A DNA stretch of 64,000 bases from Candidatus Aenigmatarchaeota archaeon (GCA_026397315.1 JAPLVC010000007.1:102378-166377), one strand, 5' to 3'; counted from the stretch's first letter, positions 13,890-57,458 are shown. A program made the numbers and translations. Notes: generated from the sequence alone by a model not told the origin.

Positions 13890-13920
13890 TTTTTGCTAAA
13901 GCTCTTTCTAAAAAGCTTTA
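13890..13920 (-). repeat. Diverged copy of the short palindromic AAGC-TTTT/AAAA-GCTT element, starting at the gltX stop codon
   Basis: Minus strand TAAAGCTTTTTAGAAAGAGCTTTAGCAAAAA: hairpin plus GC(G)AAAA tail, as in the copies at 33106 and 43085. Confidence 0.5.
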
Positions 13921-15594
13921 CTTGTGCGCGAAATAGATTACGATTTCTTTGCCGTCGTTCGCGTCGACGCGCCCGAAACCTACGCGCTCCATCTGTATCA
14001 AATCGTCGACTTTGAGCTTCGCCATCTCCGGCTCGCCTATGCCGTGCAGCACGCCGTCCTTGCTGACAATCCTTACTTTCACGTGCGGCTCGCTGACCCA
14101 CTGTATCTTCTGCATGTCTTTCATTATTTCGTCACCCACGCATTTCGCCGTTTTCACAAGCGACACATTGCACATTCCTTTAAGGCGAACCACGCCGCCC
14201 TTGAGCTTTTCGTAATCGTCATGCGATATGTGAATGCTTTTGTGATTAAGCGGGATTTTCTTCTTGCCGCGCTCCGGGAAATCCGGGTGCAGCGCTTCGA
14301 AAACTTCATGTTTCTCAGGCATGCCCTCGGGAGCGATGTTAACCGGGTCTATGACGACCATGTAGCGGTTCGCCAGAGAGTCTATGAGCTTGCGGTTGTG
14401 CGCGTCGAGGTTTTCCCAGCCGAGCTCGATATCGTTCTTACTCAGGCCGCACTGCATGGCGAGGCTTTTTATCGCATCGGGCCTGAAGCCGCGGCGGAGA
14501 AGAGCGCGAATCGTCGGGAGCTTCGGGTCGTCCCATCCGCTGACGTCGCCGTTAGCTATCATTACCTTGATATCCCTCGTGTGGACCGCGCCCTCGGGAA
14601 AACGAATCATGCCGAAGTTGACTACGTTCGTGAATTTCCAGCCGAGCATGTCCGCTATCGTCTTCTGGACTGCCGTGTTGTGCTCGTGCTCCTTGCCTCG
14701 AAACACGTGCGTAACGCCTAGTTCATGGTCGTCGATCGCGCAGGAAAAATTGTAAAGAGGCCACGCGGAATACTGCGTCCCCTTGAGAGGATGAGGCGTT
14801 TTGCTTATCCTGAAAATTGGCGGGTCGCGGAGTACGGGATTCGGATCCGACATGCTGGTCTTCAGGCGCAGCGCGGCTGAGCCGTCTTCCATCCCGCCGG
14901 CAACCATCGCTTCCCACAGCTCTTTGTTCTTCTCCGCTGTGTGATGCCTGCAGGCGCACTCGCTCTCTTCGAGCTTCTGCTTCCTGAAATCCTCGGTCGC
15001 GCAGGCGCAGACGTAAGCCCTGCCCTTTTCTATCAGATGCTTGGCATGCTTGTAATAAACGGGGATCCTGTCGGACTGCATGTAGAACTCGTCCCATTTC
15101 GTTTCCATTCGCTCGAGATCCTCGCGCAGCCAGTCGTAAGCATTCGGCTCGATCTTCTTCGCGTCCGTGTCCTCGATTCTCAGGATGAATTTGCCATTGT
15201 ATCTTTTCGCGTAATAATGACTTAGGAAAACGGCGCGCATGAACTGGCCAATCGATAGCGGGCCTGTCGGGGACGGGGCGAAACGAGTGACTACGCGCCC
15301 TTCGACCGCATCTTCGAGGGCGGCAAGGCCTTCCTGTTTTTTCTCCTGTCTCTCGAGCAACTCGGGCGCGAGCTCTTCGAGCTTCTTTCTCTGCCCGTCC
15401 GGGTGCATGTGGTTCACTTCTTTTACAACCTGGTCTATAAGCGTTCGAGTCTCTGCTATATTTGCCCTCGCCTCGTGGTCCTGCGAAACGACTTTCCCCA
15501 GGACGGCCGAAGGGTTGGCCTTGCCTTTGTAGAATATCGCGTTCTGAAGCGTGTATTTCAGGATGACTTCCTTCAGCTTGGAATTGGCCCTCAT
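13918..15594 (-). CDS. gltX: Glutamyl-tRNA synthetase (archaeal type)
   Basis: VVTRFAPSPTG, ILRIEDTD, RDPPIFR, THVFRGKEH, WDDPKLPT and QMERVGF motifs. Confidence 0.95.
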   Translation of the reverse strand: MRANSKLKEVILKYTLQNAIFYKGKANPSAVLGKVVSQDHEARANIAETRTLIDQVVKEVNHMHPDGQRKKLEELAPELLERQEKKQEGLAALEDAVEGRVVTRFAPSPTGPLSIGQFMRAVFLSHYYAKRYNGKFILRIEDTDAKKIEPNAYDWLREDLERMETKWDEFYMQSDRIPVYYKHAKHLIEKGRAYVCACATEDFRKQKLEESECACRHHTAEKNKELWEAMVAGGMEDGSAALRLKTSMSDPNPVLRDPPIFRISKTPHPLKGTQYSAWPLYNFSCAIDDHELGVTHVFRGKEHEHNTAVQKTIADMLGWKFTNVVNFGMIRFPEGAVHTRDIKVMIANGDVSGWDDPKLPTIRALLRRGFRPDAIKSLAMQCGLSKNDIELGWENLDAHNRKLIDSLANRYMVVIDPVNIAPEGMPEKHEVFEALHPDFPERGKKKIPLNHKSIHISHDDYEKLKGGVVRLKGMCNVSLVKTAKCVGDEIMKDMQKIQWVSEPHVKVRIVSKDGVLHGIGEPEMAKLKVDDLIQMERVGFGRVDANDGKEIVIYFAHK

Positions 15595-33058: not shown

Positions 33059-33105
33059 TGCCTCTCGGAAGTCAGGAGCGAACATCGTGAGCGACGATGG
33101 CTCCA

Positions 33106-33137
33106 TTTTCGCTTAAGCCTTTTTGAAAAAGGCTTAC
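33106..33137 (-). repeat. 32-bp palindromic element immediately 3' of tRNA-Arg
   Basis: + strand TTTTCGCTTAAGCCTTTTTGAAAAAGGCTTAC, 31/32 identical to 43085-43116. Followed on the minus strand by a second hairpin, GGAGCCATCGTCGCTCACGATGTTCGCTCC. Confidence 0.9.
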
Positions 33138-33138
33138 A

Positions 33139-33279
33139 TGAGCCCGGAGGGATTCGAACCCCCAACCTCTCGGTTTCTTCTGTTAAGAGCCGAAGCCGAG
33201 CGCTCTTTCCGAAGCCTGCGGTTTTTCCGCAAGCGCTTTTGCCGCGGCAAAAGGGCTTATCCGGTTGAGCTACGGACCC
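33139..33279 (-). tRNA. tRNA-Arg(UCG) with two introns: D-loop 20a/21 (33207-33258, 52 nt) and canonical 37/38 (33175-33189, 15 nt)
   Basis: Removing both introns gives the cloverleaf GGGTCCG TA GCTC AACCGGATA GAGC G CTCGG CTTCGGA CCGAG AGGTT GGGGG TTCGAAT CCCTC CGGGCTC A. Both junctions fold as bulge-helix-bulge. A20 Arg identity element present. Confidence 0.9.
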
Positions 33280-33396
33280 GTTCTAGCGAAAGACATGTGC
33301 CAAGCACATGTCAACCTACTTTATTGTATTCGCAACAAAATAAAAAGCTAAAGCCGGTCAGAGCCAGTGCAGTTTCCGCATGTTAACGGAAACCTT

Positions 33397-33936
33397 TCAC
33401 CGGTATACCAGTTCGCTTCTGACCTTTTCGGCCTGACTGCTGCCTAAAAGCATCTTGACTATTTCCAGCGCGAAATCTATCGACGTGCCAGGACCCTGCG
33501 ACGTTATTATGTGGCCGTCTGTCACGACGTTTGCCGTTCTCGGGCGGGGGACGTCTCTCTCCATGCCCGGGTAAATGGTCGCCCTCTTGTCGTCGAGGAT
33601 GCCCATCTTGGCGAGAATCGACGGCGAAGCGCATATGGCGGCTATCATTTTCTTCGACTTGTCCAGATCGTTGATTATCTCAATGATCTTCTTCGATTTG
33701 CCCAGATTTATGTAGCCCGGGTTGCCGCCTGGCAGGACGATGCCGTCGAGGCTCTTTTGGTCGATCTCATCGACTCTTTTGTCGGTGACTACTTTCACCC
33801 CAGAGCGTCCCTTCACAATCGTTCCCGGCAAACCAGCGACGATGACGTCGATGCCTGCTCTTTTGAGCACGTCGATAGCGGCCATGGCCTCAAGCTCTTC
33901 GAAACCCTCGGCAAGCGGAACAAGAACCCTTTTCAT
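33397..33936 (-). CDS. DJ-1/ThiJ/PfpI family protein
   Basis: GFEELE, LPGG, AAICASP and TSQGPGT motifs. Confidence 0.93.
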   Translation of the reverse strand: MKRVLVPLAEGFEELEAMAAIDVLKRAGIDVIVAGLPGTIVKGRSGVKVVTDKRVDEIDQKSLDGIVLPGGNPGYINLGKSKKIIEIINDLDKSKKMIAAICASPSILAKMGILDDKRATIYPGMERDVPRPRTANVVTDGHIITSQGPGTSIDFALEIVKMLLGSSQAEKVRSELVYR

Positions 33937-34107
33937 AACATAACACCCCTTTCCGTCGATTTTGTCGAATTACGACTGACACCGGCTTATATAATTAAAA
34001 GGTCCCGGAGCTTTATAAACAAACTATTTATATATAGAAGTTAAAATAATTGAATAATCCGAAATGCGCAAATTGCGTTTAATCATATTTAATCGAGGAG
34101 GTTTGAA

Positions 34108-34812
34108 ATGCAACCTACACCGCCTAATTACATGGCATATGACAGGACGATTGTCGTCTATTCACCCGACGGAAGGCTCTTGCAGGTCGAATATGCAAGG
34201 CAGGCCGTTAAGCGTGGAAGCACGGCAGCAGGTTTGGTCGTGAACAACGGCGTGTTACTTGGAGCTACGAAATCGTCAGCTCCTCTGAGCGTCAGCGATT
34301 CGTACAAGAAGATTTTCGCAATCGACGATCACATAGGCATAGTCGGTTCAGGGATACTGGCGGACGCAAGATACCTTGTGGAGATAGCGAGGGTCAAGTC
34401 GCAGATAAACAGGATTACATACGGCGAACCTGTTTCAGTACAGACGGTAGCCAAGTCCCTGGCGAACCACAAGCACATGGCGACACAATACGCGGGTTTG
34501 AGGCCGTTCGGCATAGGCCTGCTCGTTGGCGGAGTCGACAGCACAGGCGCCAACTTGTATGAAACTGACCCGTCCGGCACCATGCTGCAGTGGAAAGCCC
34601 AGGCAATAGGCCGCGGTTCAGAGAAGGCGAAGAAAGTCCTCAATTCCGGCTACAAGAAAGGCATGTCCGTGAAAGAGGGACTTAAGCTTCTTGTGAAGGC
34701 GCTGAAAGCGGGCGAGAAAAGCTTACCGAAAGAAGGCATCGAAATCGCTGTGATCACAGAAAGCGGCATGAAGAAGATTTCTCCGGGCGAGTTCGACAAG
34801 CAGGAAGAGTAA
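34108..34812 (+). CDS. psmA: Proteasome subunit alpha
   Basis: YDRTIVVYSPDGRLLQVEYA, RPFG and TDPSG motifs. Confidence 0.96.
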   Translation: MQPTPPNYMAYDRTIVVYSPDGRLLQVEYARQAVKRGSTAAGLVVNNGVLLGATKSSAPLSVSDSYKKIFAIDDHIGIVGSGILADARYLVEIARVKSQINRITYGEPVSVQTVAKSLANHKHMATQYAGLRPFGIGLLVGGVDSTGANLYETDPSGTMLQWKAQAIGRGSEKAKKVLNSGYKKGMSVKEGLKLLVKALKAGEKSLPKEGIEIAVITESGMKKISPGEFDKQEE

Positions 34813-34850
34813 GTGCCAGTGTACAGGCGGAAGTTGCAGAAAGTGGTTCT

Positions 34851-35555
34851 ATGGTTTCTGTTGAAGATGCAGTCATAGCTCGGATTACGAAGGCCGGCAT
34901 GAACTTCGAGATCCTCGTCGACCCAGACAAAGCTCTCGAGTTCCGCCGCGGCAAGGAAATCGACATAACCGACATGCTTGCCGTATCCGAGATTTACAAG
35001 GACTCGAAAAAGGGCGATCGGCATTCTGCTGAAGAGCTGCAAAAGGCCTTCGGAAAAGCGAGCATCTGGGACATCGCGAAACTCATACTCAAGGAAGGCC
35101 ACATACAGCTCACGACCGAGCAGAGAAGTAGGATGGTCGAGGAGAAGAAGAAGGAAATCGCTAGCTACATAGCCAGACAGGGCATGGACCCGCGCACCAA
35201 GATGCCGCATCCGCTCACCCGCATCATGAACGCAATCGCCGAGGCGCGCGTCATAATAGACCCTTTCAAACCGGCGAAAGACCAGGTAAAAATCGTCCTG
35301 GACAAGCTGCAGGAAATCATACCCATCTCTCTCGAAAGGATAGAAGTGGCTATACGCGTGCCCATTGAATTCGCTGGTAAGGCGAATTCCATCGTCCGCG
35401 AGATAACTGACGTCAAGAACGAGGAATGGACTAATGTTGCATGGATTGCATTGATAGAAATACCCGCAGGAATGCAGAGCGACATATACGACAAACTGAA
35501 CAAGCTCACGTCCGGCAGGGTTGAAGTCAAAATAGTTAAGGAGCACAAGATATAG
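34851..35555 (+). CDS. Ribosome maturation factor SBDS/Sdo1
   Basis: FEILVDP, QLTTEQR and DPRTKMPHP motifs; superoperon position. Confidence 0.95.
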   Translation: MVSVEDAVIARITKAGMNFEILVDPDKALEFRRGKEIDITDMLAVSEIYKDSKKGDRHSAEELQKAFGKASIWDIAKLILKEGHIQLTTEQRSRMVEEKKKEIASYIARQGMDPRTKMPHPLTRIMNAIAEARVIIDPFKPAKDQVKIVLDKLQEIIPISLERIEVAIRVPIEFAGKANSIVREITDVKNEEWTNVAWIALIEIPAGMQSDIYDKLNKLTSGRVEVKIVKEHKI

Positions 35556-35566
35556 GTGATGTGAAT

Positions 35567-36475
35567 ATGGAAACTGAAAAGATAGAAATGGATGAAAGCA
35601 TACGCAAAGAACTTGAAGAAGACGTTATGGAAGAGATAAAGGCGATACAGGAAAAGGAGAATAACGGTTTTGACGAGAGCGATGAGCCGGCTTTCGAGAA
35701 GCAAGAAAGTCCGCACGCCGCGCCCTCGCATGTGCACGAGCAAATGCACTTGGCACATGAAAGAATGGAAGAGAAAAGGGAAGAATCGGTTAGACGGGGC
35801 AAGAACGTCGTCCTTCCTGGCGACAGGATCGTCGAATCGATGGAATACCTTCCGGGCAGGAACTGCTACCGCGACGGCAACTCGATTTATTCCAAGCGAC
35901 TGGGCGTCGTGTACTACCGAGGGCATGTGATAGATGTCGTCCCGCTTTCCGGCAAATACATGCCTGAAGCCGACGACATGGTAATCGGCAAAGTGTCCGA
36001 GGTCCAATACTCAGGATGGACGATAGACGTGAACTCGCCTTACAGGGCTTTTCTGCCGCTGTCGGGCGTGCGAGGTTTCATAGAGCCGTCCAGGACCGAC
36101 ATCTCGAAAATCTACGGGGTCGGCGACCTGATATACGCAAGAATCTCGGAAGTCACGCCGCTGAAGGACATCCGCATATCGATGAAAGACCCGAGCACCA
36201 GGAAATTCGAGAACGGCAGGATAATAAGGATTTCGCCTGTGAAAGTCCCTAGGGTCATCGGCAAACAGGGCTCGATGATAAACCTGATAAAGGACAAGAC
36301 GGGCTGCAGGATTTCCGTGGGCCAGAACGGAGTGATATGGATCCAGGGAGAGAAAGAGCAGCTTGCCGCCAGGGCTATACAGGAGATTGAGGAAAAGTCC
36401 CAGATACAGGGTCTGACTGACCACATAGGGAAACTTCTCAACCAGGAAACTCCATCTGCAGGAGTCAGGATTTAG
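35567..36475 (+). CDS. rrp4: Exosome subunit Rrp4 with acidic N-terminal extension
   Basis: VVLPGD, S1 domain, KH motif KVPRVIGKQGSM, and GQNGVIW. Confidence 0.93.
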   Translation: METEKIEMDESIRKELEEDVMEEIKAIQEKENNGFDESDEPAFEKQESPHAAPSHVHEQMHLAHERMEEKREESVRRGKNVVLPGDRIVESMEYLPGRNCYRDGNSIYSKRLGVVYYRGHVIDVVPLSGKYMPEADDMVIGKVSEVQYSGWTIDVNSPYRAFLPLSGVRGFIEPSRTDISKIYGVGDLIYARISEVTPLKDIRISMKDPSTRKFENGRIIRISPVKVPRVIGKQGSMINLIKDKTGCRISVGQNGVIWIQGEKEQLAARAIQEIEEKSQIQGLTDHIGKLLNQETPSAGVRI

Positions 36476-36481
36476 GAGGAG

Positions 36482-37189
36482 ATGATTATGACAACATACA
36501 AAAGAAACGACGGCAGGAAGCTTGACGAAACCAGGCCGATAAAAATGAAAGTCGGCGTGCTGAAGCACGCGGATGGTTCGGCGCTCGTCAGCATAGGCAA
36601 GACTGTCGCGCTAGCAGCCGTTTACGGACCCAGGGAACTGAACCCGCGCCACATGCAGGAAAGCGATCGCGCGATACTGCAGTGCAACTACACTATGGCG
36701 CCGTTCTCGACAAAGGAGCGCGTCCGCCCTGGTCCTTCGAGGAGGAGCACGGAAATTTCCAAGGTCACGCGCGAGGCGCTCGAGCCCGCGCTGTTCCTGA
36801 AGGACTTCCCGAAGACGACCATCGACTTGTATATCGTGATACTGCAGGCCAACGCAGGCACGAGGACGGCAGGCATAAACGCGGCCAGCCTGGCGCTAGC
36901 GGATGCAGGCATCCAGATGCGCGACCTTGTGACGTCGATAGCGGCGGGCAAGATAGAAGGCCATTACGTTATCGACTTGAACGGCGAAGAGGAAGAACTG
37001 ACGGACTGTGACCTTCCCATCGCATACATGCCGCGCGAGAAGAAATTCACTTTAATCCAGATGGACGGCAAGATAACAAAGGAAGACATGAAGAACGTCA
37101 TAAAGCTCGCGGTAAAAGGCTGCGAAACGCTTTACGAACACCAGCGCAAAGCGCTGCTGGAGAAATGGTCAAAGGAGGGATTTGAATGA
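36482..37189 (+). CDS. rrp41: Exosome subunit Rrp41
   Basis: RNDGRK, AVYGPRE, RRSTEISKV and ANAGTR motifs. Confidence 0.95.
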   Translation: MIMTTYKRNDGRKLDETRPIKMKVGVLKHADGSALVSIGKTVALAAVYGPRELNPRHMQESDRAILQCNYTMAPFSTKERVRPGPSRRSTEISKVTREALEPALFLKDFPKTTIDLYIVILQANAGTRTAGINAASLALADAGIQMRDLVTSIAAGKIEGHYVIDLNGEEEELTDCDLPIAYMPREKKFTLIQMDGKITKEDMKNVIKLAVKGCETLYEHQRKALLEKWSKEGFE

Positions 37190-37968
37190 ACATACAAACG
37201 AGCTACATAATTTCCCATCTCAGCAAGGGCATGAGGCTCGACGGCCGCAAGCCCGATGAGCACAGGAAAATCGAGATAGAGATAGGCCCAATAGAGCAGG
37301 CCGAAGGCTCCGCCCGCGTAAAATTAGGAGGCACGGAAGTCATAGCCGGAGTGAAGCTGGAGGTGAAGGAGCCGTTCTCCGACACGCCCAACGAGGGCGT
37401 TTTAATGGTGAACACGGAATTATCGCCGGTCGCTTCGCCGGAATTCGAGCTCGGCCCGCCGAGAGAGACTGCGATAGAACTCGCCCGCATAGTCGACCGC
37501 GGCATACGCGAGTCGCACTGCATAAACACCGAGAAGCTCTGCATAAAGGTAGGCGAGAAAGTCTGGATGGTCATGGTGGATATACAACCGCTCAGTCACG
37601 AAGGCAACCTGATAGACGCTTCGGGCATCGCTGCAATCGCGGCGCTAATGACAGCCAAGATGGTCAAATATGACGAGGCTGGGGACAAAGTCATCTACGA
37701 GAAGACGGATGAAAGCGTTCCCCTCGACGACATTCCAGTCCCCGTTACGTTCGGCATAATCGACGGCAAGCTTATCGTGGACCCGACACTCGAAGAGGAA
37801 GAGTCCATGGACGGCAGGCTCACGATAACGACGAACGAAGCCGGCGATGTCTGCGCCATGCAGAAAGGCGGGGCATGCTCGCTAACGTTTGAGCTGATAG
37901 AGCAGGCCGCGGAGATGTCGATAAAGAAAGGCAAGGAAATACGCGAACTGATAAGGCAAAGCTTATAA
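37186..37968 (+). CDS. rrp42: Exosome subunit Rrp42
   Basis: RLDGR, AEGSA, PFSDTP, ELARIVDRGIRES and QKGG motifs. Confidence 0.95.
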   Translation: MNIQTSYIISHLSKGMRLDGRKPDEHRKIEIEIGPIEQAEGSARVKLGGTEVIAGVKLEVKEPFSDTPNEGVLMVNTELSPVASPEFELGPPRETAIELARIVDRGIRESHCINTEKLCIKVGEKVWMVMVDIQPLSHEGNLIDASGIAAIAALMTAKMVKYDEAGDKVIYEKTDESVPLDDIPVPVTFGIIDGKLIVDPTLEEEESMDGRLTITTNEAGDVCAMQKGGACSLTFELIEQAAEMSIKKGKEIRELIRQSL

Positions 37969-38047
37969 GTATGCGAATGGAAACAATCAAAATCAAAAAC
38001 GTTCGCATGCTTAAAAAGCATAGCTGAAAAAAACGGAAAGTGATGCT

Positions 38048-38269
38048 ATGGGAAGAACAAAAAAAGTAGGCTCGACCGGAAGGTTCGGCGTCAGATACGG
38101 CAAGGGTGTAAAGAAGCGGTTTCTGAAAATAGAAACCGTGCAAAAACAGAAACACACGTGCCCGCGCTGCCTCAGGACGGGCCTGAAAAGGGTTTCATCG
38201 GGTATATGGCTGTGCGAGAGGTGCGGCATGAAATTCGCCGGCAAGGCTTACGAGCCCGGATCGAAGTGA
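38048..38269 (+). CDS. rpl37ae: 50S ribosomal protein L37Ae (eL43)
   Basis: TGRFGVRYG, CPRC...GIWLCERC and FAGKAY motifs. Confidence 0.96.
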   Translation: MGRTKKVGSTGRFGVRYGKGVKKRFLKIETVQKQKHTCPRCLRTGLKRVSSGIWLCERCGMKFAGKAYEPGSK

Positions 38270-38279
38270 GGCTGATTTT

Positions 38280-38435
38280 ATGGAAAGGAAGGATTATGGC
38301 TACAAGTGCCTTAACTGCGGCAAGCCCGTAGAGATAGACCTGCAGAAGGCGAAGAAGATCATCTGCCCTTACTGCGGTTACAGGATCCTCGAAAAAAGAA
38401 GGCCATCAATCGGCAGAAAGGTAAAAGCGAAGTGA
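38280..38435 (+). CDS. rpoP: RNA polymerase subunit P (Rpo12)
   Basis: Hand translation: MERKDYGYKCLNCGKPVEIDLQKAKKIICPYCGYRILEKRRPSIGRKVKAK. Not in ORF track. Confidence 0.93.
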   Translation: MERKDYGYKCLNCGKPVEIDLQKAKKIICPYCGYRILEKRRPSIGRKVKAK

Positions 38436-38440
38436 TTTCC

Positions 38441-38803
38441 ATGGAAAAGGACCAGACGTCTCAGATTCTCGGACAGGCGCAGCTTTACAGTCAGCAGATC
38501 CAGAATGTCGCCGCACAAAAGGCGGCCCTCACAATGGAGCTCAATGAAATAAAAAGAGCTCTGGAAGAGGTAAAGAAGACGAAAGAGAAGTTCGTCTACA
38601 AGCTTTCCGGGCCTATTCTCATCAAAGTCGATGCTCAGGAACTGGTAAAGGACTTCGAGGAAAAGGAAAACATGGTCAACCTGCGGCTGAAGACGCTGGA
38701 GAAGCAGGAGCTGAGGCTCAAGGAAAAAATCGAAGAGTTACGAACGCGCATGATAAAGGTCGCTCCATCTTCGAAAGACGATGAAGAGGAAAACGGGAGA
38801 TAG
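38441..38803 (+). CDS. pfdB: Prefoldin beta subunit
   Basis: Coiled coil with VYKLSGPILIK hairpin; conserved position after rpoP. Confidence 0.9.
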   Translation: MEKDQTSQILGQAQLYSQQIQNVAAQKAALTMELNEIKRALEEVKKTKEKFVYKLSGPILIKVDAQELVKDFEEKENMVNLRLKTLEKQELRLKEKIEELRTRMIKVAPSSKDDEEENGR

Positions 38804-38813
38804 GCTGATTTCT

Positions 38814-39065
38814 ATGGGCAAGATTGACAAGGCAATCGAACTTATCGAAGACATAATGAATGACCGCGGCGTGCCGAGGAATGTCAAGTCGTCGCTGGAA
38901 GCGTCGATAAAATCCATAAAGACCGAGAACGAAAGCGACGGAGTGAAAATTTCGACTCTCATCAGCGTACTCGACGAATCATCGAACGACACGAACATCT
39001 CGCTTTACGCGAGGACGAAAATCTGGGACGTCGTATCGAAGCTGGAAGAGCTCAGCAAAAACTAA
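38814..39065 (+). CDS. UPF0147 family protein
   Basis: DRGVPRNV, LDESSNDTNI and RTKIW motifs. Confidence 0.88.
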   Translation: MGKIDKAIELIEDIMNDRGVPRNVKSSLEASIKSIKTENESDGVKISTLISVLDESSNDTNISLYARTKIWDVVSKLEELSKN

Positions 39066-39180
39066 GCGCAGTCGCCAAAAAGCGTTGTGCGCCTTTCGCT
39101 TCTTCCAACTAATCTTTTTAAGTCTTTTCGTAACTATATAATTATCGTTATTGATGGTTTAATCGCGGGAGGGATTTGAT

Positions 39181-39531
39181 ATGGTGCTTGAAAAACTCAG
39201 AAAGAGCTTATCAAGGGATATGGATTCAGACGACATTCCGAAGGAAGAGTTCATAGAGGTCGGCGTCGAGGAAGCGAAGATGCATGGCAAGATCGGCATA
39301 TCCATCGAGAAACTGGACGACTTCGCGGACACGGACAGGGTTCTGAAAGTCGTGCGCGAGGGATCCCTGGTCTTTCTTAAGATAAAGACGCTTAAAGAGA
39401 AGGACTTGGGCGAGCTCAAGAGAGCGGTCGAGAAGCTGAAGAAAACCGTCCTCGCTCAGAACGGCGAGATAATCGGCGTCGAGCAGGACTGGCTGATTCT
39501 CGCGCCAGAGCATGCCAGAGTGATGAGGTAA
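39181..39531 (+). CDS. sepF: Cell division protein SepF (archaeal)
   Basis: Amphipathic N-terminus, VREGSLV, and GEIIGV..WLILAP. Confidence 0.8.
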   Translation: MVLEKLRKSLSRDMDSDDIPKEEFIEVGVEEAKMHGKIGISIEKLDDFADTDRVLKVVREGSLVFLKIKTLKEKDLGELKRAVEKLKKTVLAQNGEIIGVEQDWLILAPEHARVMR

Positions 39532-39655
39532 AGCCTTTATTTTTGCTTCGCTTTTAATTTTTGTTTTTATTTAACCCAGAATTAGCAATACGTTCTGTCA
39601 CTGCTAAATTTATAAATATATAAACTTATATATATAATATTATTAAGGAGAAAGC

Positions 39656-39928
39656 ATGAAAACTCAAACGATTCATATGCCGAGACTTGACAGCGTGCTT
39701 ATGGTAGAGGATACGATAAAGAAGCTGGATTACTATCCGACAAAAAACCAGCTATGGAGAGCTCTCCCAAAAGCTATGATGTGGCAGACGTTCAACGTTA
39801 TTCTGGATTATTTAGCGAAAAGCAACAAAATATTGATTGACAAAGAAGGTAAAGTAGTATGGATATTTGCGGACAACCCAAAAATAAAGGAATTTCTGAA
39901 TAAGTCGATTCCTTATAAGAGGCAGTGA
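39656..39928 (+). CDS. Small wHTH-like protein, putative antitoxin/regulator
   Basis: PRLDSVLMVE...QLWRALPK..MWQTF..ILDYL. Directly abuts the RelE-like gene. Confidence 0.5.
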   Translation: MKTQTIHMPRLDSVLMVEDTIKKLDYYPTKNQLWRALPKAMMWQTFNVILDYLAKSNKILIDKEGKVVWIFADNPKIKEFLNKSIPYKRQ

Positions 39929-40267
39929 ATGACGGAAATAAATTTGTCGCAGGAATTTGCGAAAGAGTTTTCAGATTTGCAGAGAAGAATAGAGAAAGGC
40001 GACGGTGAAGCCGAACATCTGCTGAAGCTGATAGAAAAGGGTATAGCCAAGCTCATCGAAAATCACGAAAGCGGACAGAAAATACGGAAAAATTTATGGC
40101 CAAAATACTACGTGAACAAATACGGTATAAACAACCTTTGGAAATTAAGACTTGACGATTACTGGAGAATGATATACACTATTATCGGAGAACAAGTCCG
40201 TATTGTGGCTGTCATACTTGAAGTTATGAACCACAAAGAATACGACAAGCGTTTCGGATATAAGTAA
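39929..40267 (+). CDS. RelE/ParE-like toxin
   Basis: INLSQEFAKEF...NLWKLRL...WRMIYTI...HKEYDKRFGY. Confidence 0.7.
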   Translation: MTEINLSQEFAKEFSDLQRRIEKGDGEAEHLLKLIEKGIAKLIENHESGQKIRKNLWPKYYVNKYGINNLWKLRLDDYWRMIYTIIGEQVRIVAVILEVMNHKEYDKRFGYK

Positions 40268-40316
40268 TCAGTAATCCATCAACGATTTATCAGTAAAACA
40301 TCGATTTTTATTTATT

Positions 40317-42191
40317 TTATTTCAGCCTGATTACTTCCAGAAGCCTCGGGGCGAGCGTCTCGATCTTGTTGTATTTGTGCAGGTCGCGCGACAATTCTAG
40401 CGTCGCATATCCGTCGCCGTGGTTGCAGATTATCCTGTCGGGCCTGCTCGCGAGCCTGCTCACGAAGCTAAGGAGTTGTTTCCGATCCGAGTGGCCGGAC
40501 AACCCTTCTATCGTATCGACCGTCATCTCCATGTTTATCGTCCTGGTTTTTCCGCCCACGGACGAGATTGGCGTCTCTCTCCAGCCTTTCTGTATTCTGC
40601 GGCCGGGTGAGCCCTCGGCCTGGTAACCAACGAAAAGGAGCGTGTTCTTCTTGTCTGAAGCAAACGCCTTCAAATATTCCAGCGCCGGTCCGCCTACGAG
40701 CATGCCTGACGTCGCTATCACGACGCACGGGTCGGGCGAACCGATGACCACTTCTCGCTCTTTAGCGATTGTGATTCTCTTGAATATGTCCGCTATGAAC
40801 GGGTTCTTGCCGAAGTGGAAAATCTGCTTCTGCAGGTAGTGCGACAGGTATTCGGGGTATGCCGTGTGTATCGCCGTCGCGTCCCAGAGCATGCCTTCCA
40901 TGTAAACCGGATACTTGAAATCGTTAGCAGCGAGTATGCACATTATTTCCTGCGCTCGGCCGACCGCGAACGACGGGATGAGCACCTTGCCCCCGCGCGC
41001 CATCGCTTCGTTTACGATGCGCATGAGCTTTTCTTCAGCTTCCTTTCTCGTCGGCTTCAGGTCGCTCGAGCCGCCATAGGTCGATTCAATTATCAGCGTC
41101 TCGACGCGCGAGAAATTCGTGTAAGCCGGTTCAAAAAGCCTAGAGGGTCCGTAGAGCAAATCGCCCGTATAAAGTATGTTGTGCAGGCCGTCGCCGACGT
41201 GCAGGTGCACCAGTGCAGACCCTAGAAGATGGCCTGCCGGCTGGAGCGTCAAACGAATGTCAGTCGTCATGTCAGAGACTTCGCCGTATTCCAGCGTGAC
41301 CGTGTGCTTGACGACTTTCTCGACGGACTTCTTGGTGTAGGGAACTTTCTTCCCCTCCCTGTGGCAGATGTCAACATAATCGAGGCACAGCAGGACCATC
41401 AGGTCTCGTGTGGGCGCGGTGCAGTAGACCGGCCCTGTATATCCGTTCTCATACAGCCACGGCACGTAGCCGCAGTGGTCGAGGTGAGGATGCGAAATCA
41501 CGACGGCGTCGAGCTTTTCAATATTGAATTCCGGGACTTCGAAATAAGGGAAGTTGTCCGACGCGACATTGACGCCACAGTCGAGCAGAACATTCGACTC
41601 AGGCGTCTCGACCAGCATCGCGGAGCGCCCGACTTCGCGGAAGCCGCCCAGGCACGACAGCCTTACCCATCGGTCCGTTATTTCCTTTTTAGGCGCGTTT
41701 ATCTTCTGGCCTATGGAATTAAGAAACTTTTTTCGATAGTCGATTTCAGTATGAAGCAGATTCCGGACGGCACGCACGATTGCGCTCTCTATCGCCGGCG
41801 CCCTTTCAATCTTGGGAAGCCAGAGCGTTTCATTCTTGATTTTCTTGTAGGTCTCGCCGCCCTTGCCTATGACCATGCCCGGCTTCTGGGATTCGATTAC
41901 CACTTTCCCCATCTCCGGCTCGAAATATATCTCGCGAATGCCAGCGTCTTCGGGCACGATTTCCTTTATTTTCTTCTTCGTCTTCTCCATGTCCATCGTT
42001 ATCGACAGGTCGGGACGTATCTCTATCCTTTTCTTGAGGTTCGAGACCATCTCCCTGACTATCCTGTCGTGGTCGCGGAAGAATTCCGGGCTCTTCGTGT
42101 AGAGCACGATTTCCGGCCCCTCGAACTTGACTTCCGTAATCTGAGCTTCCTTGGACAAATTTTTCTGTAGTTCCTTCAGAATATCGTTCAT
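40317..42191 (-). CDS. fttA: Beta-CASP ribonuclease aCPSF1 / transcription termination factor FttA
   Basis: N-terminal KH domains, GGFREVGRS, SHPHLDH, AGHLLGS and SGHSD motifs; adjacent to psmB. Confidence 0.95.
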   Translation of the reverse strand: MNDILKELQKNLSKEAQITEVKFEGPEIVLYTKSPEFFRDHDRIVREMVSNLKKRIEIRPDLSITMDMEKTKKKIKEIVPEDAGIREIYFEPEMGKVVIESQKPGMVIGKGGETYKKIKNETLWLPKIERAPAIESAIVRAVRNLLHTEIDYRKKFLNSIGQKINAPKKEITDRWVRLSCLGGFREVGRSAMLVETPESNVLLDCGVNVASDNFPYFEVPEFNIEKLDAVVISHPHLDHCGYVPWLYENGYTGPVYCTAPTRDLMVLLCLDYVDICHREGKKVPYTKKSVEKVVKHTVTLEYGEVSDMTTDIRLTLQPAGHLLGSALVHLHVGDGLHNILYTGDLLYGPSRLFEPAYTNFSRVETLIIESTYGGSSDLKPTRKEAEEKLMRIVNEAMARGGKVLIPSFAVGRAQEIMCILAANDFKYPVYMEGMLWDATAIHTAYPEYLSHYLQKQIFHFGKNPFIADIFKRITIAKEREVVIGSPDPCVVIATSGMLVGGPALEYLKAFASDKKNTLLFVGYQAEGSPGRRIQKGWRETPISSVGGKTRTINMEMTVDTIEGLSGHSDRKQLLSFVSRLASRPDRIICNHGDGYATLELSRDLHKYNKIETLAPRLLEVIRLK

Positions 42192-42242
42192 TGTAATCTC
42201 TCCTCGTGGGTATAAAATTCGCGCTATGACGCGTTGAAAATA

Positions 42243-42875
42243 TCACTTCATACAAGCTTTGACTTCATCGTCGCTTAGCGACGTCATGCCTTTCTGGGTT
42301 ATGACCATGACGTCTATGCCCGAGCCGCCTGATGCGATATCCCTTTCAATCGCGGCTCTTACGGCGCGGACCGCGAGCTTCTTGGTGCTCTCGACGTCTA
42401 ACCCTTCCTTGAACTTGTCCTCAAGGACGCCGAGTGCCATGACCGAGCCAGAACCGGTGGAAAAATAACTGTCCTCCTCAATCACCGAGCCGCTCGGGTC
42501 GAACGAGAAAAGCTTTGGGGCGGCGTCGTATCCGCCTATCAGTAGTTGCACGTAATATGGGTAGTAACTCCTGGCGTAAAGTATGTTCGCGACCAGCGAC
42601 GCTATCGACTTGATGTTCATTCTCCTCGATTCCTCGAGCTCGTAGAGCTTTATCTCGGCCTTGACGTAGCGCTCCAGCGCCTGTGCGTCTCCCACGCTTC
42701 CCGCGATCGTCATGGCCGCGTGGTCTGCGAGCTTCATTATCTTCTTAGTATTCTTGCTGGCGACGAGGTAGCCCATAGTCGCCTTTCGCTCGGCCGCGAG
42801 GACGACGAAGTCCTTGCCCACTATGCCGAGCGTCGTCGTGCCGGTATGCAAGTTCTCTATCTTTCTTTCTGTCAT
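42243..42875 (-). CDS. psmB: Proteasome subunit beta
   Basis: Propeptide then TG|TTTLG; GSVGDAQ, TGSGS and RDIASG motifs. Confidence 0.96.
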   Translation of the reverse strand: MTERKIENLHTGTTTLGIVGKDFVVLAAERKATMGYLVASKNTKKIMKLADHAAMTIAGSVGDAQALERYVKAEIKLYELEESRRMNIKSIASLVANILYARSYYPYYVQLLIGGYDAAPKLFSFDPSGSVIEEDSYFSTGSGSVMALGVLEDKFKEGLDVESTKKLAVRAVRAAIERDIASGGSGIDVMVITQKGMTSLSDDEVKACMK

Positions 42876-43006
42876 AATTATCACACATCACTTATACACA
42901 TATACATAACACACGGCCTCAATTGCCGCAACAAAGAACCCGTGCATTCAGAATATTGATATTGTATTACAAGGGAGTATTTAAATATTTTCTATCGTGC
43001 AGGATA

Positions 43007-43130
43007 TGCCCCGGCCGGGAGTCGAACCCGGGTCATCGGATCGAGAGTCCGATATCCTTGGCCTTTGTCCAAGCCATTTCCGGCTTTTCGCTTAAGCCTT
43101 TTTGGAAAAGGCTTACTAGACTACCGGGGC
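43007..43130 (-). tRNA. tRNA-Glu(CUC) with a non-canonical D-loop intron at 15/16 (43065-43115, 51 nt)
   Basis: Spliced form: GCCCCGG TA GTCT AGAGGCCAA GGAT A TCGGA CTCTCGA TCCGA TGAC CCGGG TTCGACT CCCGG CCGGGGC A. BHB has central helix GTCT/GGAC and bulges AGT and AAA. Confidence 0.9.
43085..43116 (-). repeat. 32-bp palindromic element occupying the tRNA-Glu intron
   Basis: + strand TTTTCGCTTAAGCCTTTTTGGAAAAGGCTTAC; one mismatch to 33106-33137. Confidence 0.9.
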
Positions 43131-56567: not shown

Positions 56568-57458
56568 ATGAAATCTGTCGAAATCTCATCCGGTGCAGAA
56601 TTTTTGGCTGAATGGATAGAAGGACATCCTGCATATTTAAGTGATAAAAGCGTAAATGATATCATGGGGGCTACAATTCATCCAAAAAACAAGAAACGTA
56701 TGCTGCCGTTCATAAAATCGAATTTTGGAAAACTATCTGAGAGGGAAATTGCCAGGAGACTGGAAATAGGAAAAACGACCGTCAACAAATGGCGGATAGG
56801 GCTTGGATTAGAAATTAAAAAAAATACGGTGAATGAAAATTTCTTTAAATTATGGAACCCGGAAATGGCATATATTATCGGATACATTTTCGCGGATGGT
56901 AATATTAACTGGAAACCTGAGAAGTCATACAGAGCACTGACCATAACAGCAGCGGCTAAGGATGCGGAACATCTGGAAAGGATAAGATTGAATCTGAACA
57001 GCACCAGAAAGCTCACATATTCTGCGGATACAAACTCGTACCGGTTAATTGTGAACAGTAAAGAAATTTGCACGGATTTGATGAAAATTGGTCTGTGCCC
57101 AAAAAAATCATTAACGATAAAATTTCCAAATGTTCCGGAAAAGTTTCTAAGCCACTTTATCAGAGGGGTTATAGACGGGGATGGAAACGTAAGATATGTA
57201 AAAAGGGAACGAAGTCCCTACTTTGAAATAACCATATCTTCAGGTTCCAAAGCTTTTTTAATAGAAATGGCGAAGAAAATTGCATCGAAAGGGATTGGGG
57301 GCAACGTAAGAAAAACGGGAAAAAACGTGTACATATTGCAATACGCCTGCACGAGGGGCCTAACTCTGGCAAAATGGGTTTATGATAATGATAGCCTTTG
57401 TCTAAATAGAAAATATCAGCAATATAAAATAGCATTAGGCGAAAAAGGGAGGTGGTGA
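56568..57458 (+). mobile_element. Free-standing double-motif LAGLIDADG homing endonuclease with N-terminal HTH
   Basis: AYIIGYIFADG and HFIRGVIDGDG motifs, HTH LSEREIARRLEIGKTTV, and C-terminal LNRKY. AT-rich. Real start may be 56664. Confidence 0.88.

Follow-up and report, generated by a model that had tools for sequence, protein, structure and literature searches.

The 64,000-nt stretch of DNA from a Candidatus Aenigmatarchaeota archaeon analysed here (GCA_026397315.1, JAPLVC010000007.1:102378-166377; hereafter the window, to which bare coordinates refer) carries copies of a module of about 33 nt that lies inside tRNA introns, behind a tRNA gene and on a stop codon. We interpret this module as a small, non-autonomous dispersed repeat, spread class-wide within the Aenigmatarchaeota (DPANN), that persists only where it causes no damage and whose own 5' end and tail enable it to complete a splicing motif; we put the probability of this interpretation at roughly 0.58. 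The same block occurs in three settings, as a whole intron at a new T-loop site, as the front of older introns, and loose behind tRNAs or on stop codons, and as such it gives a tangible starting point for the question of how non-canonical introns enter archaeal tRNA genes and makes that question testable. Throughout, G000 denotes the source genome (a 1.05-Mb assembly, 91% complete), G003 its sister genome, and other G numbers further relatives.

tRNA genes interrupted by the module

A reading made from the sequence alone (the sequence-only reading) had described a 32-bp element that stands free behind tRNA-Arg and recurs in the D-loop intron of tRNA-Glu. A pattern search of the window recovered exactly these two matches, at 33106-33137 and 43085-43116, both on the minus strand, and the same pattern gave 0 matches in 100 shuffles. 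The two 32-mers are identical at 31 of 32 positions, with a single T/C difference in the top of the hairpin. The free copy (33106..33137, minus strand) starts 1 nt past the discriminator base of tRNA-Arg(TCG) and consists of a 10-bp hairpin, TAAGCCTTTT/AAAAGGCTTA, followed by the tail AGCGAAAA; it scored 48.6 bits with our covariance model of the module, R1, and its minimum free energy (MFE) is -10.2 kcal/mol (z -3.0). The second copy (43085..43116, minus strand; 47.1 bits) comprises exon base G15 and the first 31 nt of the tRNA-Glu intron.

Standard tRNA finders (ARAGORN and Rfam, at default settings or gathering thresholds) made zero tRNA calls in the window, because its tRNA-Arg and tRNA-Glu genes are both interrupted; the module-bearing introns thus explain the missing calls. 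We located the genes with a bulge-helix-bulge (BHB) finder that looks for a 4-bp helix H between two 3-nt bulges, each cut after its second base, with flanking helices h and h', and then ran ARAGORN on the spliced candidates. This identified a tRNA-Arg(TCG) gene with two introns (33139..33279, minus strand) and a tRNA-Glu(CTC) gene with a single D-loop intron (43007..43130, minus strand). With the predicted introns removed, both gave canonical cloverleaves in ARAGORN, of 74 nt for tRNA-Arg(TCG) and 73 nt for tRNA-Glu(CTC).

The tRNA-Glu intron follows nt 15 and is 51 nt long (43065..43115, minus strand), being made up of the module, GCCGGAAAT, a distal GGCTT, the exon complement GGAC, and AA. 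Its splicing motif has the helix H GTCT/GGAC, the bulges AG|T and AA|A, and a 5-bp h' of AAGCC/GGCTT, with the outer helix missing. The D-loop intron of tRNA-Arg (33207..33258, minus strand; 52 nt) represents a diverged sister subfamily; its helix H is CCGG/TCGG, with AT|A and AA|A as bulges and AGCC/GGCT as a 4-bp h'. Both are therefore of the relaxed helix-bulge-helix form (HBh'), retaining the 4-bp central helix and the two 3-nt bulges. The tRNA-Arg intron had been taken for a diverged version of the same design; it is 66% identical to the tRNA-Glu intron, 81% identical to the orthologous intron of G004 and 69% identical to the tRNA-Val D-loop intron of the same genome. The position of its junction was fixed independently, because the spliced D-arm of tRNA-Arg equals, letter for letter, the intron-less D-arm of the congeners G001 and G002. 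The second intron of tRNA-Arg, at the canonical position 37/38 (33175..33189, minus strand; 15 nt), has a strict BHB with H CTTC/GAAG and a 5-bp outer helix, and carries no module.

In both D-loop introns, the (A)AGCC that follows the 5' splice site can pair with the distal GGCT(T), which adjoins the 4-nt exon complement, to give the helix-bulge-helix. The sequence-only reading had assigned the AGCC end to the outer helix of the BHB. We found that it supplies a helix in both introns, and that the claim is correct for the intron-side helix h'.

The genome encodes a single splicing endonuclease, a 395-aa open reading frame (ORF) with two tRNA_int_endo matches that aligns over its full length to the three-unit epsilon2 EndA of ARMAN-2 (PDB 4FZ2; E 3e-104). 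Endonucleases of the epsilon2 type are described, in the parts of the literature consulted, as cutting non-canonical introns (PMC3239211, PMC5829648). The encoded enzyme is of the broad-specificity epsilon2 type and could excise introns of this kind.

Distribution and structure of the module

We searched the source genome by short-word BLAST, with a hairpin-plus-tail scan, and with the covariance model R1 (17 copies). The scan returned 71 matches, compared with 14–27 in shuffles, and R1 returned 20 full module copies, in agreement with the dispersed palindromic repeat that had been proposed from the window. Eight of the 20 begin tRNA introns, five lie in tRNA trailers, three sit on stop codons and four are otherwise intergenic, that is, 8/20 are inside tRNA genes and 12/20 are extragenic. 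Relative to the neighbouring genes, the module lies either way round (for example, at C4:88575).

The proposal that the element builds tRNA introns likewise found support, since many tRNA positions carry BHB-type introns whose 5' portion is the module. It begins the D-loop introns of tRNA-Glu (after nt 15) and tRNA-Pro(CGG) (after nt 12), anticodon-loop introns in tRNA-Ala(GGC), Gln(CTG), Ser(GGA) and Thr(GGT), and T-loop introns in tRNA-Arg(CCT) and one multi-intron tRNA. Similar sequence thus stands in different tRNA genes and at different positions (after nt 12, 15, 37 and 59). Two further introns, in the D-loops of tRNA-Arg(TCG) and tRNA-Val(TAC), carry the diverged subfamily, which also forms a tRNA-Arg trailer in G005. 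The trailer copies start 1–2 nt past the 3' ends of tRNA-Arg(TCG), Ile(GAT), Pro(CGG), Cys and a Leu-like gene. In three cases, the TAA that ends an ORF opens the module; among these is the third family copy of the window (13890..13920, minus strand; CT-type, TAAAGCTTTTT..., 39 bits), whose first three bases are the stop codon (13918-13920) of a 558-aa ORF at 13918..15594 on the minus strand.

Among 61 genomes of the same order, R1 matched 43, and the number of copies per genome ranged from 0 to 37; in these relatives the module again begins D-, anticodon- and T-loop introns and trails tRNA ends. An even sample of the phylum gave matches in 32 of 141 genomes, all inside the class and including further orders; whole families without an R1 match (f13, 0/27) served as a negative control. 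When the contexts of 139 copies were classified automatically, 98 could not be assigned and some trailers were mistaken for long introns, so clear cases alone are used here. Two exact-pattern scans of viral contigs gave no module.

The module has a length of 32–34 nt and comprises a 9–11-bp hairpin, (T)AAGC[CT][CT]TTT / AAA[AG][AG]GCTT(A), and the tail A[GT]C[GA]AAAA. Among 102 copies aligned to the model, pairing is kept in 96% of cells, and compensatory double changes occupy 104 cells at 6 of the 10 pairs. The covariation score was 0.345, whereas shuffles gave 0.141 and none of 500 was as high; slid registers had far lower values. Fitting the copies to the model favours such a result, but the margin is nonetheless large. 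The helix also varies between orthologous sites, the T-loop intron discussed below having AAGTC/GGCTT in G003 (with a G.U pair) and GAGTC/GACTT in G000.

The tail shows a regularity of its own. Its purine before the A-run equals the 3'-arm purine after the A-run in 91/102 copies, and the next position agrees in 101/102 (alignment A3, columns 26/38 and 28/37), the subfamilies being old and the copies accordingly of limited independence; the identity holds even in eight copies with a 5'-arm U opposite G, and has the form of a mirror-type three-strand rule. A downstream complement of the tail (TTCGCT) accompanies 26 of 139 copies, including the free copy of the window, compared with about 11 expected, and pairing of the tail with this complement was rejected as a general feature, since it concerns a subset of copies only.

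We also considered whether the module is a terminator, either intrinsic (hairpin plus U-run) or of the archaeal oligo-T type. Its 5' arm contains a T4-T6 run, also in intron copies of single-copy tRNA genes, and the antisense strand has two T-runs; a terminator on the sense strand was rejected on the grounds that T5-T6 runs occur inside intron copies and that the tail is A-rich, not U-rich. Inspected by eye, the flanks of the free copy contain no complement that would form a BHB central helix with the tRNA 3' end, and the copy behind tRNA-Arg is for this reason probably not cut by the endonuclease.

Several copies lie in other settings. In G040:C18 (L029:1441-2405), the 3' part of the 16S rRNA takes up 965 nt for 680 model positions, and a module (about L029:1501-1534) stands within it between AAGTCGTAA and CAAGGTAGCC; this insert looks like an rRNA intron that begins with the module. 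In G028 (C3:22818-22851, L018:1501-1534), a 33-nt module lies in frame and without a stop inside the ORF L018:1157-1660, an AHSA1-family gene (Pfam E 2e-16), to which it adds NKLFRKKLKQK. Removal of 36 nt at a BHB-like motif (TTTT/AAAA helix) would keep the frame too, and the in-frame module is perhaps translated as an insert, perhaps spliced out of the mRNA as an intron. For about 20 of the 84 copies that were not assigned to a tRNA, the 150 nt upstream hold an open frame ending on TAA or TGA, which are the first three bases of the hairpin.

Filled sites, empty sites and rival explanations

The sequence-only reading had suggested that empty sites be sought in close relatives, and two were found. 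In G000 and G003, whose flanks here are 91% identical, the T-loop of tRNA-Arg(CCT) contains a bare 33-nt module between TTCGAA and TCCCCC. The same loop is uninterrupted in G004, of the same genus, and in G014, G008 and G005; from D-arm to T-arm, G004 and G014 otherwise keep the sequence of the filled gene, save for a single D-loop base in G004. At the filled site, the module makes up the complete intron, with the hairpin as the inner helix h', the tail CGAA pairing with T54-T55-C56-G57, an AA bulge, and the T-stem as outer helix. The parsimonious reading of this comparison is a single gain on the G000/G003 branch.

The second empty site lies behind tRNA-Arg(TCG), where the free module is the front of a 79-nt composite block (33059..33137, minus strand) that continues into a GGAGCC...GCTCC...CTTCCGA part and fills the space between the tRNA and the ATG of the next ORF (33058). 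The block is present at the same place in G003, with an identical hairpin and a diverged second half, and missing in the congener G002, in which the same ORF (MRYKKSG... against MKYKKSG...) begins one base past tRNA-Arg(TCG). Homologous blocks of about 70 nt recur at C4:88535-88607 and C1:23090-23158 of the source genome, and a homologue of the composite block makes up the bulk of the tRNA-Leu D-loop intron of G012.

Because filled and empty sites occur in close relatives, these comparisons showed, at the level of sequence, that whole modules come and go as blocks. A tail AAGC that is a target-site duplication of the hairpin's AAGC was considered and rejected, as AAGC is present at neither empty site; hairpin and tail therefore arrive together. 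And since its own 5' end and tail can complete the splicing motif, the module could create introns as well as front older ones.

Both 32-mer loci of the window are found in G003, with one and two substitutions. The presence of copies at both orthologous places excludes a misassembly of the two 32-mers, which had been named as a possible refutation, and it weakens the idea of a recent jump behind their 31/32 identity, as both loci predate the G000/G003 split. With both already in the common ancestor, the identity reflects slow change since an older copying event. The two window introns that carry the module or its sister subfamily are old as well. The tRNA-Glu intron after nt 15 is common to G000 and G003 and has same-site homologues in G002, G009 and G013, and it is absent from G004, G012, G014, G015 and G005. 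Among the genomes that have it, the 3' ends are homologous (GGYTTGGRNRA), with differing module subtypes and middles. At the D-loop site of tRNA-Arg(TCG), the intron is homologous between G000 and G004, of unrelated sequence in G003, and missing from G001, G002 and G005. Exchange between settings is suggested by a pair of copies elsewhere in G000, one in a trailer (C7:152606) and one in a tRNA-Ser intron (C7:157040), which lie 4.4 kb apart and are identical, the orthologous trailer of G003 being of another subtype.

The mechanism we propose is that insertion of a module would create a new intron, for which the T-loop case serves as model, and that older introns would be remodelled by exchange between module copies. 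Within tRNA and rRNA genes, a module would be tolerated when it completes a BHB-type motif that the epsilon2 endonuclease can cut, and the endonuclease would then remove the module-bearing intron; behind tRNA 3' ends, trailer processing would be expected to remove it, and on or after stop codons it would be harmless.

A number of results weigh against this interpretation. The sequence-only reading had likened the element to repetitive extragenic palindromes (REP) mobilized by REP-associated tyrosine transposases (RAYT) and to miniature inverted-repeat transposable elements (MITEs); the REP/RAYT likeness found no support. Searches that covered Y1_Tnp, TnpB and RVT_1 (other transposase families being outside their range) found no match for a Y1/RAYT transposase (PF01797, Y1_Tnp) in G000 at its 91% completeness, in any of five genomes of the genus (0/5), or in G024, the copy-richest relative with 37 copies. 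Y1 occurs in 9 of the 61 relatives, unrelated to module copy number. There is no convincing TnpB in G000, where one 17-bit match fell below threshold, and a reverse transcriptase (RVT_1) was not found there. The arms are inverted repeats, as in a MITE, yet neither clean empty site (TTCGAA|TCCCCC and GGGCTCAT|ATG) shows a target-site duplication. G013 also has a module behind tRNA-Arg(TCG), so the absence of the block from G002 may be a loss rather than a site never gained; gain and loss were told apart by parsimony, without a tree. The minimum-energy fold of pre-tRNA-Glu forms the module hairpin (-10.2 kcal/mol) and not AAGCC/GGCTT, and the splicing-competent fold would therefore be an alternative conformer or a three-way junction. 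Finally, most module-bearing introns are old and stably inherited (Ser(GGA) across genera, Glu and Gln within the genus), and such inheritance, together with structural selection on the hairpin, fits a useful RNA part equally well as a selfish one.

The useful RNA part is the rival we take most seriously, although we consider it rather unlikely. Under it, the module would be a selected 3'-end or processing hairpin (a stabiliser, terminator or protein-binding site) placed after the ends of functional RNAs and spread by ordinary duplication and gene conversion, and within introns it would serve as a folding scaffold. Such a role would account for the strong structural covariation, for a hairpin conserved at orthologous sites while adjoining sequence drifts, as in the G000 and G003 trailer blocks, and for a position that is invariably next to where a functional unit ends, 1–2 nt after tRNAs or, in about 20 copies, on stop codons; the tail/3'-arm identity (91/102 and 101/102) suggests a further structural constraint. 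However, a copy number ranging from 0 to 37 among close relatives, with many empty orthologous sites, is unusual for a required signal, and copies occur in both orientations, in frame in a protein gene and inside 16S rRNA. A sense-strand terminator with T5-T6 in introns would cut short the transcripts of essential tRNAs, and its tail, moreover, is rich in A rather than U. In addition, the ORF behind tRNA-Arg seems to be read through the module, given that inspection by eye, with no scan of the region, revealed no clear TATA-like promoter belonging to it.

Less probable still is that the module was born as a tRNA intron and spread through RNA, with excised introns ligated or reverse-spliced and copied back into DNA, so that the free copies would be retro-copies. 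We regard this origin as improbable. It would explain why free copies share whole intron-like blocks with the introns of relatives (the tRNA-Arg trailer block and the tRNA-Leu D-loop intron of G012) and why intron contents are swapped at fixed splice sites, but no reverse transcriptase was detected in the genome, and the free copies have no flanking BHB motif, with no central-helix complement in their flanks by eye. Some relatives have tens of copies, mostly in settings that the classifier did not recognise as tRNA genes (G024), and the T-loop gain is a new site rather than a swap at an old one. As for chance similarity or an assembly artefact, nothing speaks for it except that the element is short and, with its A/T runs, of low complexity, and with 0 matches in 100 shuffles, orthologous copies at both loci in G003, 20 copies here and hundreds in relatives, and compensatory changes in the hairpin, its probability is negligible.

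Going beyond a dispersed repeat that persists where harmless, the module might be an active vehicle of intron gain, a DNA block of about 33 nt that inserts into tRNA genes, makes a ready-made BHB intron there because the helices of the splicing motif come from its own tail and 5' end, and is moved by a transposase-independent route. We advance this only tentatively and would sooner bet against it than for it; if it is true, no source of non-canonical tRNA introns in archaea had been identified before this module.

The closest precedents are the conserved ('transposed') BHB intron families of the Thermoproteales, in which similar introns occupy unrelated tRNAs (Fujishima et al. 2010, Mol Biol Evol 27:2233, as summarized in PMC4090602). 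As far as that summary goes, they share with the module a late gain at the DNA level and a BHB motif that decides where an intron can persist, and the 2014 review calls the mechanism of intron transposition unknown (PMC4090602). The present case concerns a different phylum, and what is shared is a discrete 32–34-nt front module rather than whole introns. The module also occurs in trailers, on stop codons, in a protein gene and in 16S rRNA, whereas the section of PMC4090602 on intron transposition mentions no extragenic copies, and clean filled and empty sites among close relatives are available here. ARMAN-2 and Micrarchaeum (PMC3239211, PMC3488258; 4FZ2) resemble our organism in being tiny DPANN archaea with many introns at odd positions, the relaxed HBh' form and a homologous endonuclease; in the portions consulted, that work addresses the enzyme and its substrate range and describes no repeat module common to introns and extragenic sites.

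REP elements, including bacterial interspersed mosaic elements (BIMEs), with their RAYTs, and MITEs are likewise short palindromes in tens of copies, mostly at gene 3' ends, with covarying arms and variable copy number. Of the 20 copies in G000, however, only 12 are extragenic. Unlike them, the module came without Y1, a target-site duplication or a related autonomous element among the families searched (Y1_Tnp, TnpB and RVT_1), and it is strongly linked to tRNA genes and to the splicing motif. A 2026 census of tRNA intron gains in Asgard archaea (bioRxiv 10.64898/2026.10.13.758758) reports, in the portion consulted, many independent gains at BHB-competent sites, as here, and ends by stating that 'how they arrive remains open'; by comparison, a module common to tRNA genes and to sites outside them is evident in the present genomes. 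A literature search gave no description of the module in Aenigmarchaeota, and what is new here is the discrete module, its presence outside tRNA genes, and the matched filled and empty sites.

Further copies and neighbouring features

In G002 (L053, G002:C3), where the block behind tRNA-Arg(TCG) is missing, the start codon one base past the discriminator would imply a tRNA-mRNA co-transcript that yields a leaderless mRNA after 3' processing. In G000, a reading frame that starts at an ATG just past the 32-mer (33104-33106, minus strand) runs across the composite block and joins the downstream ORF, which would then encode 156 aa rather than about 140 aa. This N-terminal extension is probably not real, because G003 has neither the ATG nor the frame.

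Several tRNA genes have two copies behind them, an intact module adjoining the tRNA and, beyond it, a second one in decay (G000:C7:111503-111563, minus strand; G003:C30:52861 and G003:C28:45990, each with the 30 nt downstream), as if successive copies had arrived at the same spot. Some genera have nested 50-nt forms at tRNA D-loop sites, in which a second hairpin (CAGGAGC..GCTTCC) lies in the loop of the module hairpin and not after the tail (L132, L134, L136, L137, L147, L155 and L164-L167, from G009, G013, G040, G007 and G025). Several copies of G024 (L096, L097, L098 and L024) have conserved flanks, with TTTAGGCTCC..TTTTTGATTA before the module and GTTTACAA after it, and on this evidence the module appears in that genome as part of a larger repeat.

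Elsewhere in the window, an ORF at 56859-57338 on the plus strand contains two LAGLIDADG_3 matches in a 304-aa frame. Three further LAGLIDADG genes lie elsewhere in the genome, and two of them adjoin tRNA genes.

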